From a virus, in UHGV virus genome UHGV-0097970: a stretch of 38,949 nucleotides of DNA; one strand, 5' to 3'. The number at the start of each line of letters is the position of its first letter. Within the stretch, counting starts at the first letter, position 1. Positions 70 to 33,002 of the stretch are shown in pieces. The notes under the pieces are model-generated. The model worked only from the letters and a program-made list of their open reading frames with translations, was not told the DNA's origin and made no database searches. The translations under genes and the position numbers were made by a program.

Positions 70-110
70 GAACCGCAATGAACAAGGGTTTCATGATTTG
101 TGATTTTAGT

Positions 111-538: not shown

Positions 539-838
539 CTACGATGCAAGAATCCATACCAATAAGCATCCGATAATTGGGAAAGAAAAATCCAACAAAC
601 TTCCCACATCCCACACGCGTGGATCAAAACCTCCCCACCACGGCATGTTGACACGTTTCCCTTTCCCAAACTTTTCTATCCAGCGATATTCTGCCTGGGT
701 GTGTTCACGCGCAATGAAGAACGTACAACCGGCTATCGCACCGTAAGCCCAGTTTCCGGTAAAAATACCAACCAGTACCTGAGCCGCAAAAGCGCAAAGC
801 GAGTGAAGAAATGGAGTGACATCAATGCTCTTAATCAT
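539..838 (-). CDS. Small predicted membrane protein, hypothetical; possible moron
   Basis: 99-aa ORF with hydrophobic segments ([44 protein letters not shown]); its ATG overlaps the tailspike stop (ATGA at 835-838), implying co-transcription; sits between tailspike and attL. Confidence 0.5.
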
Positions 839-2892
839 GAAACTTCCCCGTTGGTTGAAAATATGGCTCCTCCAACTCCAAGTGTATTTCGTGTTGTGCT
901 CAACCTAAGAGGGCTGGAGTCAGAATTAGAATATCCTGTAGCAGAAATAAAAGATCCTCCACTAATAGTCAACTGCGGAACATCGGCTATATCTGAATAA
1001 GTTCTGTCAGCAACAGTATTATTTATAGCCACATATGATCCAAAAAAACTTCTTATTGTTTGGTTTTTAACTTTACTTCCTTCAATGGTTATCCTACTAC
1101 CACAGTCGGCAATAAATCCTGAATCTGCATCCAGCGTTGCATTCATAAAAGAAGCTTCAGATCTCTCTACATCAATCCATCTAATATCTTTTGTGGGATT
1201 TGCACCAAATACATGACAAATATTAGAGTTAAACCTTACACCATCTTGGAGGTGCATTAATTTTTTTATATCTGTACCCCATAGCCTTGGAAAATTAACA
1301 GATGCTCCTGCATGGCAATCAAATCCCAGCTCAGCCCCTGAGATATCTACAGCCTTTCCTGAAATAACAGCACCAGTGTCTGCATTAACGGCTGTTCCAC
1401 AATTGCGCATATCATTACCAGCAACATCAACACAACCCGCACCATCAATACGCACACCAAGTGCACATCCATAAAAACCTTTTTCAATATTTGGTTCAAG
1501 GACTTTACCACTTGTTTCTGCATCACTTTCTTCAACGTCATGTCGTCTTGCATCAACATATGCTGTATGAATGCAGGTTAATCCACGATATGAGCAATGT
1601 ATAGTTTTATGGTCGCGTATATTAACATTTGAACCATCTCTTACATTCCATCCTATATAACAATAGCTTGCACTTGACCCCTGAAAATCTGCTTTAACAT
1701 TATAAATACAATTAACTGACGCAACCGTACTCTCTGTGCACCGTTCAAACTTGCTTACAGGCATTGATGCCTTGACATTATTTACCAGTTGCAGGGAAGA
1801 GTATCTGCTATAAGAAAAATCACATACGTAATACCCTTCTGGCATATATGCAGCAACACTTTCCTCATCAGGAGCACATCCGGTATGATATGCACTAATT
1901 TTTGCACCAAAGCTACCATGAATTCCAACGTAGAACTTTCGAGCACCTGAATACGGATAGAAATTAAGTTCAGCTTTTTGAGTTACAATAAATGCACAAA
2001 CATCGCTATCATCTCTATTTTCTTCAATCTGAATAGCAAATACAGGACTTTTTGCTGCATCGCAAATGTAAAATAAATATTTGTATTCGTAATACGTCCT
2101 AACAGTTTTAGTAAACAAACTGGTATCAGAGAAAACCACTGAGTCTTCTGATATTATTTTAATCCATGATAAGTCACATCCTGCTGAAATTTCTATTTGC
2201 TCATTGAGCACAAAACCGGAAAGAATTTTAATTATGCAAAAATCAATGCCATTTTTCCATAGTGGACGCAGTGCAACAGCTGAGTTTAGAGCATCACTAA
2301 TAGATTTAAAATTACCATATTCCCCAACTGTTATTGTGAATGCATACCTGGAATTAAATACTGCGGCACTCTCTCCAGAGTTAATAGCTGCAGATATCAT
2401 GTCATAATTTGATATAAAATCATTTGGCGTGATTATTTCTGCGTTTTTATTGTGCTGTGTTCTAAGTTTTGAATTTACATGAACACTTTTAACTGCAATA
2501 CGGGAGTCGTCAACAAGTATTTCATTACCCTCTGTTGCTAACTCTTGTCTTAACTGATCCGGGTCATACTTCAGCACATTCGGAAAATAGAACTGCTGTG
2601 CACCATACGCATCATAAACAGCCATAGAATGGCCTTGCACAGTTACGAACTTGGCAATCTGTCCGTTATATACCGGGTAACCAGCAGTGTTAATGATGAT
2701 TGGTTGAGAAACAGGAACGTGAGAGCCGTCTTCGTTCTCCACATAAACCTGAATCTGGTTTTCAGGATTTACCGGGTCAGTGTCAATTTTACCGATATAA
2801 ATTTTGCCATTAGCTACGGCTTTAAAAGAACGCGCCATAGTGAAGAGTTGCGAAGGCATTGATACGATCACATTGGCTGTAATGTCTGTCAT
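835..2892 (-). CDS. Tailspike protein with P22 gp9-type N-terminal head-binding domain and divergent receptor-binding domain
   Basis: N-terminal ~110 aa ([13 protein letters not shown]...KYDPDQ) closely matches the P22 tailspike head-binding domain from memory; remaining ~570 aa are unrelated to P22 gp9 and AT-rich. Confidence 0.9.
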
Positions 2893-3308: not shown

Positions 3309-4037
3309 TTACGCCACATTTGAGCCATGTAGTAGGTGTTGTAGTGCTTTAACGCCTTCAGAATTGTAACGGAACGCCTCTACCTGTTTGCTGGAATGCG
3401 CCGATTTATCCAGGAAGAACTTCCCGTACTGCTCAGTTTTGAGGTTGTTTGCGTTAGCAATGCGACCAATCTTGTTGGCCGTTACTCCAAGCTGCTCTGC
3501 AACCTCCCCTGCTGAGTAGTAATGCTCTTCTATTGCCGGAAGAGGTATTGCATTAAAACCAACGAGCGGGTTGATTATACTTGCTGCCGCTGTCTGCTTT
3601 GCCTCAGGCGCAAGATTTGGCATCAGATCGAACAGATTGGTAACAGCTTCAACCGTCATTTTCAATGTTCGCGCTTGACGATACTCAACAAGTCCACTCG
3701 CTGATTTACCGCTTTTAATGTGCGCTTCTTGCATACTTTCAAGTTGGTCTACCAGTGAGCGGCGAACGGCTTTTGACTCGCGAGCGGCAACTCGCAATGC
3801 TTGCTTGATTGACATCTCAATGATAACCATCGAAGTTTTGTTCGCTTTTTGCACTACACTTTTTGTGTAGTGCTCTCCATCCAATTCATCTTCAATTTTC
3901 TCGATGAATTTGTTATTACGAACCTCCGGCTCACCGCACTGTCTACGAGCCTGATTTACCATCTCAAGAAGGCGCTGGCTGTCAATGGTTTTATCCGTGA
4001 CAACGGATCCGATGTTTGCTACATTCTTAAAAGTCAT
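3309..4037 (-). CDS. Putative antirepressor-module / phage regulatory protein
   Basis: 242-aa ORF downstream of ant; AAGGAA RBS 7 nt before MTFKNVANIG; C-terminal region looks like a DNA-binding segment (SAGEVAEQLGVTANKIGRIANANNL). Family assignment from memory only. Confidence 0.45.
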   Translation of the reverse strand: MTFKNVANIGSVVTDKTIDSQRLLEMVNQARRQCGEPEVRNNKFIEKIEDELDGEHYTKSVVQKANKTSMVIIEMSIKQALRVAARESKAVRRSLVDQLESMQEAHIKSGKSASGLVEYRQARTLKMTVEAVTNLFDLMPNLAPEAKQTAAASIINPLVGFNAIPLPAIEEHYYSAGEVAEQLGVTANKIGRIANANNLKTEQYGKFFLDKSAHSSKQVEAFRYNSEGVKALQHLLHGSNVA

Positions 4038-4075
4038 TAGGCATTCCTTATGTGGTAGTAAGGGTGTGACATAGG

Positions 4076-4106
4076 CCGCCAGCAGCACACTGGCGGTTTT
4101 CTTTTT
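4076..4106 (+). terminator. Intrinsic terminator on + strand, antisense to the ant operon
   Basis: CCGCCAG-cagcaca-CTGGCGG followed by ttttcttttt on the + strand. Confidence 0.5.
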
Positions 4107-4125
4107 GCGCCGTCCGGCGCACCAA

Positions 4126-4752
4126 TCAATGAATCCATTCCTCGCCGCGCAGTTTTGCCAGCATTGGCTGAGCGTTCTTTACGACAAAATTGTTGGTATC
4201 AAGATTCTTCATTTCACGAAGAAGTGATTTCTTGGTTTCTTCTGACATATAGCGAGTCTCATATGCGATATCGTAAATCCTTCCTGAAAGCTCAGAACAA
4301 ATTTGCTTCATTCCTGGGTAGATGTGTTTGCACATTTGTTGACTCTTCTCCATCCACAATTGTAAGTAGCAGAGATTAACCAGTTCTTCGTCAGTAAACT
4401 GTTTTGCAATCGGTGAGCATTCTGCCTGCCGATCCAAAATATCCAGCACCCAGCGGCGGAACTCTTTGGCTACCGGAGTGCGAGCAAACATCGCGATTAG
4501 GTGGGCACCGCGTAGTGAGAAAACTCGCACTTTTTTGCGATAATTTCCTGAGGTACTCACTTCGAGTACCTGAGTCATTCCAGCGCTAAACTCATCGCTA
4601 TACTTGTTATAAATCATTGTTACTGCACGACTATTTGCGTATTTAAGTGCAGATGCAATATTAGATGATGTAAACCAAACACCATGCATATCACGGGTGG
4701 GCACCAACTCAACTCCGTGGAAGTTGTATTCTGATTTTGCTACAATATTCAT
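4126..4752 (-). CDS. ant: Antirepressor Ant (Bro-N domain)
   Basis: MNIVAKSEYNFHGVELVPTRDMHGVWFTSSNIASAL...FSLRGAHLIAMFARTPVAKEFRRWVLDIL is a Bro-N-type antirepressor N-terminus; start set at internal ATG preceded by GGAAA; follows arc. Confidence 0.8.
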   Translation of the reverse strand: MNIVAKSEYNFHGVELVPTRDMHGVWFTSSNIASALKYANSRAVTMIYNKYSDEFSAGMTQVLEVSTSGNYRKKVRVFSLRGAHLIAMFARTPVAKEFRRWVLDILDRQAECSPIAKQFTDEELVNLCYLQLWMEKSQQMCKHIYPGMKQICSELSGRIYDIAYETRYMSEETKKSLLREMKNLDTNNFVVKNAQPMLAKLRGEEWIH

Positions 4753-30400: not shown

Positions 30401-30490
30401 TGATTATAACCAAAGATAACTCAAGTTATAAAAAATAGCAATAACCTTTGTTATTTTACTTTGGATAACCGTAGTTATAGATTTGTGGGT
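30401..30490. promoter_or_regulatory. OR operator region with pR/pRM; three ATAAC-N4-GTTAT operators
   Basis: Sites at 30415-30428, 30440-30453, 30464-30477 spaced about 24-25 bp; minus-strand -10 TATAAT (comp. 30402-30407) upstream of cro. Confidence 0.7.
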
Positions 30491-31198
30491 ATGAAAACAT
30501 TCGCAGAAAGACTAAATGCAGCCATGAGCTCAGCTGGGGTATCACAATCACAGCTTGCTGACATGGTTGGAATATCTCAGCCAGCCATACAGAAGATGTC
30601 GTCCGGTAAAACAAACGGATCTCGCAAGATGGTTGAATTAGCCAATGCTTTAAAAGTGCGCCCTGAATGGCTTAGTTCTGGTATTGGTGAAATGAGGGAT
30701 GGTGCACATGAAGAACCATCCAATGTCCGTGAGTCATCTTTAAAAGCTGTGGTATGGGAAGACATTAAAAGAAACGATGACGAGTTTGTTGCGTTGCCTC
30801 TTCTTAACGTTTCGCTTTCAGCGGGAAGCGGTAGCTGCGAGCTAGAGGAATCATCGGAGTTCTCTTTGGTTTTCAGAAAGCACTATCTGAAAAAGATGGG
30901 AGTATCTGAAAGATCAGCCAAGCTAGTTAGGGTTGTAGGGCAAAGCATGGAACCAACGCTTCACGATGGCGATGTTGTTGGTGTTAACACGCAAGATACC
31001 ACCATCAGAGATGGTAAAACCTACGCTATTTGCCAGTCTGATTTGTTACGAGTAAAAACATTAATCGCCACCCCTACATCGGTGATAATCAGATCAATAA
31101 ATCGCGAAGAGTACCCGGATGAAGTAATGGATAGAGATGAATTTCATGAAACCGTAAGGATTATTGGCAGAGTATTCTGGTCGTCTCATAGTTGGTAA
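30491..31198 (+). CDS. cI: CI-type prophage repressor (HTH + active-looking S24 peptidase)
   Basis: HTH LSQSQLADMVGISQPAIQKM; C-terminal GQSMEPT (Ser present) and LRVKTL Lys; start at MKTFAERL since upstream ATG overlaps the operators. Confidence 0.9.
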   Translation: MKTFAERLNAAMSSAGVSQSQLADMVGISQPAIQKMSSGKTNGSRKMVELANALKVRPEWLSSGIGEMRDGAHEEPSNVRESSLKAVVWEDIKRNDDEFVALPLLNVSLSAGSGSCELEESSEFSLVFRKHYLKKMGVSERSAKLVRVVGQSMEPTLHDGDVVGVNTQDTTIRDGKTYAICQSDLLRVKTLIATPTSVIIRSINREEYPDEVMDRDEFHETVRIIGRVFWSSHSW

Positions 31199-31238
31199 CC
31201 GATAATCAGAAGAAGACTTACGGAAGTGCGGAGGGATA

Positions 31239-31535
31239 ATGGAATTTCTGATAGTTTTTGTTGTTGTTTTGGTCATCATTCTTTTTGTTTTGCTAAGCAT
31301 TAGTAAAAAGCTATCTCAAGTGATTGAACATAGCTCTAATCGCGCAAAAGAAGAAGAGCATCTAATTGATATAAAAGATATTCTCTCTGATATAAAAATC
31401 ACATTAGATGAAATAAAATACACAACAGATCTAATTGAACAGTATAAAATACCAACCCCAAACGAGAGAAAAGCAATAGATCAATATCGTATTGACTTAG
31501 AAATCGACGAAATGCTAAGCAAAAGAAAAGACTAA
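31239..31535 (+). CDS. Small single-pass membrane protein co-transcribed with cI (rexAB position), hypothetical
   Basis: 98 aa: hydrophobic N-terminus EFLIVFVVVLVIILFVLLSI then charged helical region; extremely AT-rich; 40 nt after cI stop, followed by terminator. Confidence 0.6.
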   Translation: MEFLIVFVVVLVIILFVLLSISKKLSQVIEHSSNRAKEEEHLIDIKDILSDIKITLDEIKYTTDLIEQYKIPTPNERKAIDQYRIDLEIDEMLSKRKD

Positions 31536-31540
31536 AAACA

Positions 31541-31567
31541 CCCGGCCTCAGCGCCGGGTTTTCTTTT
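31541..31567 (+). terminator. Intrinsic terminator ending the cI operon
   Basis: CCCGGC-ctcagc-GCCGGG followed by TTTTCTTTT. Confidence 0.7.
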
Positions 31568-31699
31568 CCTGCCGTTCACCACCCAATCACCCATCATCAT
31601 CATAGACAAGCATCAAGCCAAAGGTAACACCTTCACCCCGCACGCAAGCCCTCAAACACCAATCAATCAGCAACATTTACAAAAATAAAATACCTTTGT

Positions 31700-31780
31700 T
31701 ATCCATTACTTATAACTTATTTACCACAAAATATAAATTAGGTTATTGACCACACCTATAACCTAAGTTATCTTTAAGCC
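31700..31780 (+). promoter_or_regulatory. OL/pL region
   Basis: -35 TTGACC (31746-31751), 17-bp spacer, -10 TATCTT; operator-like ATAAC-N4-GTTAT at 31758-31771 and ATAAA-N4-GTTAT at 31733-31746. Confidence 0.6.
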
Positions 31781-31820: not shown

Positions 31821-31862
31821 GCTCTTTAACATTGATGGGATTGTCCCGCCGAAATGCGGGAA
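31821..31862 (+). promoter_or_regulatory. nutL (boxA GCTCTTTAAC + boxB CCCGCCGAAATGCGGG)
   Basis: Same boxA/boxB pair as nutR, here on + strand between pL and N. Confidence 0.7.
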
Positions 31863-32055: not shown

Positions 32056-32355
32056 ATGACAGTAGTCATTACATATCTGGCTGACGATAACGCCAGAAAT
32101 CGCCGCAGAGCACGCAGACAGGATCAACGTGAACAGGCAATGCAAGAACAGCGACTGGCGCGAAAAATTGCGCTAAAGCTCTCTGGTTGCGTCAGAGCAG
32201 ACAAAGCAGCATCACTCGGAAGCCTTCTCTGCAAGAAGACAGAAGAAGTCGAGAGTAAACAGAATCGTATTTACTACCGCAAGCCACGCAGTGAAATGGG
32301 TGTGACTTGTGTTGGTCGCCAGAAAATGAAATTAGGCAGCAAACCACTTATTTGA
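32056..32355 (+). CDS. N: N-type transcription antiterminator
   Basis: Arg-rich motif DNARNRRRARRQDQREQ near N-terminus; C-terminus YYRKPRSEMGVTCVGRQKMKLGSKPLI resembles lambda N (WYSKPGERGITCSGRQKIKGKSIPLI). Confidence 0.8.
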   Translation: MTVVITYLADDNARNRRRARRQDQREQAMQEQRLARKIALKLSGCVRADKAASLGSLLCKKTEEVESKQNRIYYRKPRSEMGVTCVGRQKMKLGSKPLI

Positions 32356-32363
32356 GGTGATAT

Positions 32364-32615
32364 ATGGAATTTCATGAAAGTGCGATTTATGATTTTCGCG
32401 CTAACGCAAATTCAGTAAAACCACAGCCAATTGCAGTTCTTTTTAAAACAATGGGTGCGTGGGCTGTTTTATGCTTCGCCGCTGATGACACTGACGCAAG
32501 AATGGCAATAGGCCAAGAGATGGAGATGGACCCGACAAACGATGAATTCATAATTTATGGCGCTCCATCTAATTACTTACTTGATACCTGCAACATTTAC
32601 AACAAGGCTGCCTGA
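32364..32615 (+). CDS. Hypothetical pL-operon protein
   Basis: 83-aa ORF 9 nt after N. Confidence 0.45.
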   Translation: MEFHESAIYDFRANANSVKPQPIAVLFKTMGAWAVLCFAADDTDARMAIGQEMEMDPTNDEFIIYGAPSNYLLDTCNIYNKAA

Positions 32616-32837
32616 TGGTGGCCTTTATTTTTAGCATAAACAACAGAATAAACACTGCACTGTGCATTCATTCCAGCGAGTGAATACACGGAGCAATGTC
32701 GCTCGTAACGAAACAGGAGCCGACTTGTTCTGATTATTGGAAATCTTCTTTGCCCTCCAGTGTGAGGGCCTTTTTATATGCATACCAATAACGCTTCACT
32801 CGAGGCGTTTTCGTTATGTATAAATAAGGAGCACACC

Positions 32838-33002
32838 ATGCAATATGCCATTGCAGGGTGGCCTGTTGCTGGCTGCCCTTCCGAATCTTTACTTGAACGA
32901 ATCACCCGTAAATTACGTGACGGATGGAAACGCCTTATCGACATACTTAATCAGCCAGGAGTCCCAAAAAATGGATCAAACACTTATGGCTATCCAGACT
33001 AA
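32838..33002 (+). CDS. cIII: CIII (FtsH inhibitor)
   Basis: MQYAIAGWPVAGCPSESLLERITRKLRDGWKRLIDILNQPGVPKNGSNTYGYPD appears identical to lambda CIII; AAGGAG RBS. Confidence 0.95.
   Translation: MQYAIAGWPVAGCPSESLLERITRKLRDGWKRLIDILNQPGVPKNGSNTYGYPD

Follow-up and report, generated by a model that had tools for sequence, protein, structure and literature searches.

Small membrane-anchored proteins encoded next to the cI repressor are candidate defensive cargo of lambdoid prophages

We found that a 98-aa ORF directly 3' of the cI gene in a P22-like E. coli (pro)phage occupies the position of lambda rexAB, and that its family, PHROG 18389, is a fourth, unrelated occupant of this slot, very small and acting as a single gene. 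By analogy with the occupants already known, the gene would be repressor-linked, lysogen-expressed prophage cargo that is probably defensive. Our preferred reading, to which we give a probability of about 0.4, is that its product may protect the lysogen against heterologous superinfecting phages through binding at the cytoplasmic face of the inner membrane.

Results

Organization of the immunity region

The window, by which we mean the whole stretch of 38,949 bases analysed here, derives from a P22-like E. coli (pro)phage, and its first 25 kb share 95-97% identity with JEP4 and CUS-3. The 98-aa ORF described in the first-pass annotation was recovered on the plus strand (Table 1). It starts 40 nt after the end of cI on the same strand, across a gap without hairpin, and is the single ORF between cI and the terminator. 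The stem of this terminator (31540-31559) has 7 bp, six of them G-C pairs, followed by TTTTCTTTTCC, and its folding energy is -17.1 kcal/mol (z = -2.9 vs shuffles). Six matches to the operator motif ATAACN4GTTAT occur in the window, five of them at OR and OL, and a count of six was reached in 0/100 shuffles. The resulting order, OR-cI-ORF-terminator-OL/pL-nutL-N, matches OR-cI-rexA-rexB-tImm-OL/pL-nutL-N of lambda. Because OR and OL bracket cI together with the ORF, with pL, nutL and N downstream, the ORF occupies the rexAB position, as had been proposed from the sequence at first reading, and the comparative data below strengthen this positional argument.

Table 1. Features of the cI-N interval and parts of the 98-aa protein (positions in the window unless residues are stated)
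Feature	Position	Strand	Basis or remark
OR, three operators ATAACN4GTTAT at 30416, 30441 and 30465	30416-30478	.	between divergent cro and cI
pRM-like promoter, TATAGA, ~10 nt 5' of cI ATG	~30476-30481		inferred by analogy with lambda pRM
cI repressor, 235 aa, HTH_3 + Peptidase_S24, first gene of the operon	30491-31198	+	phrog_4, E = 4.5e-53
Shine-Dalgarno GGAGG, 4 nt 5' of the ATG of the 98-aa ORF	31230-31234	+	sequence reading
98-aa membrane protein ORF (PHROG 18389)	31239-31535	+	ORF list, profile match
Rho-independent terminator of the cI operon (counterpart of lambda tImm)	31540-31570	+	also behind alternative cargo cassettes
OL operators at 31733 and 31758 (together 31733-31771), overlapping pL-like promoter	31733-31774	+	motif search
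pL-like promoter TTGACC, 17 nt spacer, TATCTT	31746-31774	+	directed away from the ORF, towards N
nutL-like boxA GCTCTTTAACA	31821-31831	+	sequence reading; assigned by analogy with lambda nutL
boxB-like hairpin of the nutL-like element	31845-31860	+	assigned by analogy with lambda nutL
N-like antiterminator, 99 aa, arginine-rich N-terminus	32056-32355	+	phrog_271, E = 2.5e-35
98-aa protein, predicted parts	residues: TM 4-21, variable linker ~27-44, helices 45-68 and 74-97		basic juxtamembrane SKK

The base composition of the ORF is foreign. Its GC content is 0.30 compared with 0.47 for the window, the lowest of any 297-nt stretch in it and a value reached by 0.03% of such windows, and its GC3 is 0.25 against 0.39-0.56 in the neighbouring genes; the original remark that it lies far below the flanking DNA thus holds. 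Apart from the 98-aa ORF, GC <= 0.33 is reached in the window solely at 1876-2366, within the ORF at 835-2892 (-) and downstream of the conserved N-terminal part of this 685-aa tailspike-like ORF, which suggests a horizontally exchanged receptor-binding domain.

Several minor elements were noted in the same region. A promoter-like sequence with 9/12 matches (TTGGCA, 17 nt spacer, CATAGT) lies at 31164-31192 (+), inside the 3' end of cI, and could yield a cI-independent transcript of the ORF comparable to that from pLIT for rexB, its match count being at chance level and such sites being no more numerous than in shuffled sequence. Between the operon terminator and OL there is a C/A-rich non-coding spacer of ~120 nt (31568-31690), and the parts 31597-31629 and 31637-31751 are kept in a sister prophage (L049, described below) despite a cargo swap; an Rfam search of the cI-N interval, including this spacer, identified no RNA family. 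Directly after N, an 83-aa ORF (32364-32615, +) gave a full-length match to PHROG 2471 (unknown function; E = 1.2e-60) and none in Pfam. Further downstream, the lambda cIII thermoregulator element (RF01804) was identified at 32825-32883 (+; 88.5 bits, E = 1.7e-21), overlapping the start of a cIII-like ORF (ATG at 32839). The sRNA svsR of prophage NC-SV was considered and found to be unrelated, as it is embedded in the 3'-terminal part of a different cI gene.

A conserved protein family

The ORF is short and AT-rich and carries the annotation "hypothetical protein" only, as might be expected of a spurious or decaying ORF in an AT-rich spacer. This explanation is effectively refuted by the pattern of constraint. 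The pN/pS ratio is 0.30 (0.05 for cI and 0 for cro), none of the 15 alleles, which come from the window and 31 related loci (32 in total), contains an internal stop or is otherwise disrupted, and homologues at 24-78% identity retain the C-terminal motif IKYTTDxIEKYKLPxxxERKxIDQIRIDxEID, with Y69, P72, D81 and E88 invariant across the family alignment; a strong ribosome-binding site and a confident AlphaFold2 model (pLDDT 82-89) argue in the same direction. Given the low pN/pS, the lack of stop alleles and the retention of a protein-level motif down to 24% identity, we regard the ORF as a real gene under selection.

Residues 1-98 align with profile positions 1-98 of 98 of PHROG 18389 ("unknown function"; E = 6e-61), and all 17 aligned members match this PHROG and no other at E <= 1e-3. 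When 1.84 billion representative proteins were searched exhaustively by HMM, 14 relatives of 94-126 aa were recovered, and a word-indexed search of 5.8 billion proteins returned 11-16 clusters from E. coli, Citrobacter and one Pelagicoccus, all named "hypothetical protein". The first-pass annotation had not recognised the family, and by homology search the protein indeed belongs to no characterised one: scans of Pfam, NCBIfam and PADLOC gave sub-threshold matches only (DUF5385, MscL, ZorB3 and others), and the weak Pfam, PHROG and NCBIfam matches (E >= 0.003) all cover the TM helix or the coiled-coil. No significant defence model was found in PADLOC-DB v2, the sole match being ZorB3 over the TM segment (E = 0.0099, 13.4 bits), and no annotated family in PHROGs, Pfam and NCBIfam, those for superinfection exclusion included, reached its cut-off. 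Comparison with RexA, RexB, the Sie proteins and BstA revealed no similarity, and in structure search no solved fold matched beyond generic helices. Sequence-profile matches in the PDB were rejected, as they were to designed coiled coils only, via composition. The homology and structure searches thus returned no confident match to a characterised Rex-like or immunity protein, and literature searches by accession and by genomic position found no paper on the protein.

Predicted protein architecture

The original description, a single-pass membrane anchor followed by a charged helical region, is borne out by the predictions. Residues 4-21 form a strong TM segment (mean Kyte-Doolittle 3.7), the sole hydrophobic one, and the remainder is charged and helical. 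AlphaFold2 models the full-length protein (mean pLDDT 82) as an extended, SNARE-like monomer that has three helices (2-38, 45-68 and 74-97) and, at 37-40, a linker of low confidence; when modelled by itself, the 60-residue C-terminal part gives two helices connected by a 5-residue turn (pLDDT 88.8). The two C-terminal helices are conserved, acidic and amphipathic and are joined by a Y-K-[IL]-P turn (here Y69-K-I-P72); helix 42-68 carries a heptad with L42, L49, L56 and T63 at position a, I45, I52, I59 and I66 at position d, and extra hydrophobics at position g.

In 17/17 family members K/R is absent before the TM helix and occurs one to four times in the 15 residues that come next, and the net charge of the C-terminal part is -2 to -9. 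Since positive residues follow but do not precede the TM helix, the positive-inside rule predicts an N-out/C-in topology, with the conserved module at the cytoplasmic face of the inner membrane. The family alignment falls into three zones: an N-terminal TM segment that is kept in hydrophobicity only and is the least sequence-constrained part, a linker whose length differs by ~20 residues among members, and the C-terminal helices, which are the conserved part. Because conservation is concentrated in these helices, with a variable linker and an unconstrained TM sequence, the pattern points to a membrane-localised binding module rather than a pore.

Linkage to cI across immunity types

The gene was preceded by the same cI (>= 98.7% identical) in 30/30 close IMG/VR contigs, all of them also with the same cro (100%), and the flanks in these contigs vary, with the cII module 34-99% identical and N 65-96% identical or absent. 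As the flanks are mosaic and cI and cro constant, the gene travels with the immunity module. More distant members, 35-47% identical to the window protein (P0013-P0018 and P0021), each immediately follow a different HTH + S24 repressor gene in the arrangement cII-cro-cI-X-N. In total, eight lambdoid immunity types carry a family member 0-54 nt downstream of cI, two of the gaps being 0-1 nt, and identity among their repressors is mostly 19-51% (one pair, 77%). A hairpin and T-run follow the family gene in 6/8 of these loci, and its GC content is always below that of cI and the flanks. The occurrence of homologues behind eight different cI genes at gaps of 0-54 nt strongly implies co-transcription with cI.

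Linkage of the family to cI is not strict, because its four most distant members (P0020, P0022, P0023 and P0025, one of them from Pelagicoccus) adjoin no repressor. These members are 24-36% identical, and one follows a sigma-54 activator and another a SHOCT-domain protein; the family may have a non-phage origin or a second context. The repressor-less loci are L036 (Pelagicoccus sp., JARXHY010000034.1) at 4001-4351, L039 at 1376-1756, L038 at 1229-1570 and L044 at 4001-4342.

An exchangeable cargo slot downstream of cI

The same cro, with a 97-99% identical cI, was also found with two unrelated cargos, namely DUF3024 with a 173-aa protein, and a pair of genes of 120 aa and 42 aa. The DUF3024 protein matches the PADLOC defence candidate PDC-S43 (E = 2e-41). 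It is soluble, has 113 aa and occurs with a second gene, and represents an alternative cargo rather than a relative of the 98-aa protein. The 120-aa and 42-aa pair, carried by L049 (NZ_CP148507.1), is unrelated to the 98-aa gene and has no match in Pfam or PADLOC. Comparison of L049 (2299-3068) with the window (31201-31539) revealed a precise cassette exchange, in which homology ends 2 nt past the cI stop and restarts at the first base of the terminator stem; the possibility that the 42-aa ORF is a remnant of the 98-aa gene was rejected, as the two are unrelated and the entire cassette is replaced.

Because the same cI and cro occur with unrelated cargo, the slot downstream of cI is exchangeable, and the cargo forms a cassette delimited by the cI stop on one side and the terminator on the other. 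The first-pass annotation had credited the gene with its own terminator. The hairpin and T-run are present, but they are shared with the replacement cargo: homology with L049 resumes exactly there after the swap, and the terminator therefore belongs to the operon, as a counterpart of tImm, and not to the gene. The interval between cI and N is a published mosaic hotspot, occupied by rexAB in lambda and by bstA in BTP1 (PMC8585504), and exchange between the cI stop and a shared terminator offers a simple rule for mining it for further cargo.

Discussion

Comparison with known occupants and exclusion proteins

Genes co-expressed with the repressor are the ones that a lysogen always makes, and the three well-studied occupants of the slot, RexAB, BstA and Stk, are all anti-phage. 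The 98-aa gene resembles rexAB in following cI in the same orientation, within the interval from OR to OL/pL, with the operon terminator at its end and with expression expected in the lysogen; RexB is likewise an inner-membrane protein. However, lambda has two genes, encoding a soluble RexA of 279 aa and a RexB of 144 aa with four TM helices, whereas here there is a single gene with one TM helix and no RexA-like sensor partner in the operon. A relationship between the proteins received an hhalign probability of 0.5% for RexA and 0.7% for RexB, and none of the Pfam Rex families matched within E <= 1.

A parallel in gene organization is BstA of Salmonella prophage BTP1, an abortive infection system with aba self-immunity that is encoded by a lone gene directly 3' of cI with its own Rho-independent terminator and shows synteny with the repressor across diverse prophages (PMC8585504). 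The single gene directly downstream of cI, the terminator that follows and the synteny with the repressor are common to both, but BstA is much larger, soluble and DNA-associated, and the 98-aa protein is small, membrane-bound and without Pfam domain. The Stk kinase of Stx phage 933W reportedly excludes HK97, and its gene is likewise lysogen-expressed, adjoins cI and is carried by an E. coli lambdoid prophage; Stk is a eukaryote-like protein kinase, and the 98-aa protein has no kinase domain.

P22 SieA, HK97 gp15, T4 Imm and lactococcal Sie2009 are small inner-membrane exclusion proteins that act alone, and the gene for Sie2009 also adjoins a repressor gene. The 98-aa protein resembles them as a small inner-membrane protein of a phage or prophage, but it differs from all four in that no PHROG, Pfam or PADLOC match connects it with them, and in that its bulk is predicted to be cytoplasmic, not membrane-embedded or periplasmic. 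A cytoplasmic domain is an unusual geometry for a classical injection blocker. In architecture only, with an N-terminal TM segment, a coiled-coil and a small C-terminal helical domain, the protein recalls the membrane-anchored replication organiser p16.7 of phi29; however, phrog_6682 is matched without significance (E = 0.12), the gene lies in another genomic context, and DNA binding by the C-terminal domain is unlikely since this domain is acidic. A holin or antiholin was rejected, as the gene lies in the immunity operon and related prophages have their holin and endolysin genes elsewhere.

A proposed role at the inner membrane and its alternatives

The 98-aa ORF would be an accessory ("moron") gene that a lambdoid immunity operon carries at its variable cargo position; that many repressors occur with the gene, and many cargos with one repressor, argues for an accessory gene rather than a co-adapted regulator. 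On the lambda analogy it would share the transcripts of cI, initiated at pRE during establishment and at pRM during maintenance, with pR and pL reading away from it. As only these repressor promoters would then read through the gene, its product is expected in lysogens and not from pL or pR in lytic growth. In the inner membrane, the protein would expose ~3 residues on the outside and keep its C-terminus inside, so that an acidic two-helix coiled-coil module would be held on a flexible linker at the cytoplasmic face. There it could bind a specific partner, either part of an invading phage or a host complex in the inner membrane on which phages depend for DNA entry or early development, and such binding would protect the lysogen, and hence the prophage, without killing the cell. 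We thus tentatively propose a new single-gene prophage defence in which the tethered coiled-coil intercepts a phage component or a host factor for entry or early development; if so, it might represent a minimal analogue of RexAB in the cI operon that works by another mechanism and can be exchanged between at least eight lambdoid immunity types. Defence is favoured because the systems already known from the cI-N hotspot act against phages and one alternative cargo is a PADLOC defence candidate. For exclusion or abortive infection, as suggested at first reading, position in the hotspot is a prior only, and lysogen-expressed cargo can serve other ends.

One such end would be lysogenic conversion unrelated to defence, with the protein acting on the envelope, division, transport or stress tolerance of the host. 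A membrane anchor with a cytoplasmic coiled-coil is frequent in bacterial division and envelope adaptors, distant members of the family occur outside phage immunity regions, and the gene is carried by many pathogenic E. coli; we nevertheless consider such a role unlikely, given that no similar host protein was found, that the family amounts to 14 relatives in the exhaustive search, and that the occupants of the slot known from experiment are anti-phage systems. Control of lysogeny appears rather improbable as well. Here the tethered domain would modulate a host inner-membrane factor that sets the lysis-lysogeny balance or prophage stability, for example in the turnover of cII/cIII by FtsH-HflKC or in access of the induction machinery. 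The gene would share the promoters of cI (by analogy pRE, then pRM), FtsH-HflKC acts, in established lambda biology, on the same side of the inner membrane where the domain is predicted to lie, and the phage encodes cII and carries the cIII thermoregulator element. On the other hand, the same cro and cI occur with unrelated replacement genes and the gene with eight unrelated repressors, which argues for an accessory function, and the gene is rare in both E. coli genomes and phage records (see below).

A RexB-like outcome is the remaining alternative, and we consider it quite doubtful. An abortive-infection effector would stay inert in the membrane until its cytoplasmic helices sensed a phage product; it would then oligomerise via the coiled-coil and the TM helix, permeabilise or depolarise the membrane and kill the infected cell. 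This would suit a gene at the position of rexAB and bstA, and the clean heptad at 42-68 with extra hydrophobics at g is consistent with oligomerisation, as are the extended SNARE-like monomer, expected if folding occurs upon assembly, and the best PDB profile matches, which are to designed 5- and 6-helix barrels (E = 1e-6) and are composition-driven. However, the protein has one TM helix in place of the four of RexB and its TM segment is the least constrained in sequence; neither a sensor partner nor an antitoxin-like control accompanies it despite its expected constitutive expression with cI, and the hhalign probabilities given above speak against a relationship with RexA or RexB. Interception of a partner at the cytoplasmic face of the membrane is the reading that we favour.

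Distribution and significance

The combination of cI and the 98-aa gene was identified in 98/5,426 complete E. coli genomes (about 2%), chromosomal in every case, and in 1/50,697 GenBank phage records, the unannotated LC744178. No member was found among 185,579 species-representative genomes, which were scanned twice, and a metagenome scan returned known variants only. Carriers include many pathogenic E. coli, among them O26:H11 EHEC and ExPEC strains, and the gene is present in one Stx1a-converting phage. The copy in E. coli H19 was considered as part of Stx1 phage H-19B, and this was rejected, as its host is a P22-like prophage without stx beside Q.

A new prophage-encoded candidate anti-phage gene would not surprise a specialist. 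The unusually strict synteny with cI across unrelated repressors, together with the small size of the protein, makes it a clean experimental target, and any effect on phage susceptibility or membrane physiology would bear on how prophages compete in pathogenic E. coli. Two matching places each were observed in ExPEC XM (NZ_CP025328.1), strain 2313 (NZ_AP027159.1) and FXCREC035 (NZ_CM135826.1), which suggests that each of these chromosomes contains two prophages sharing at least part of the immunity region.
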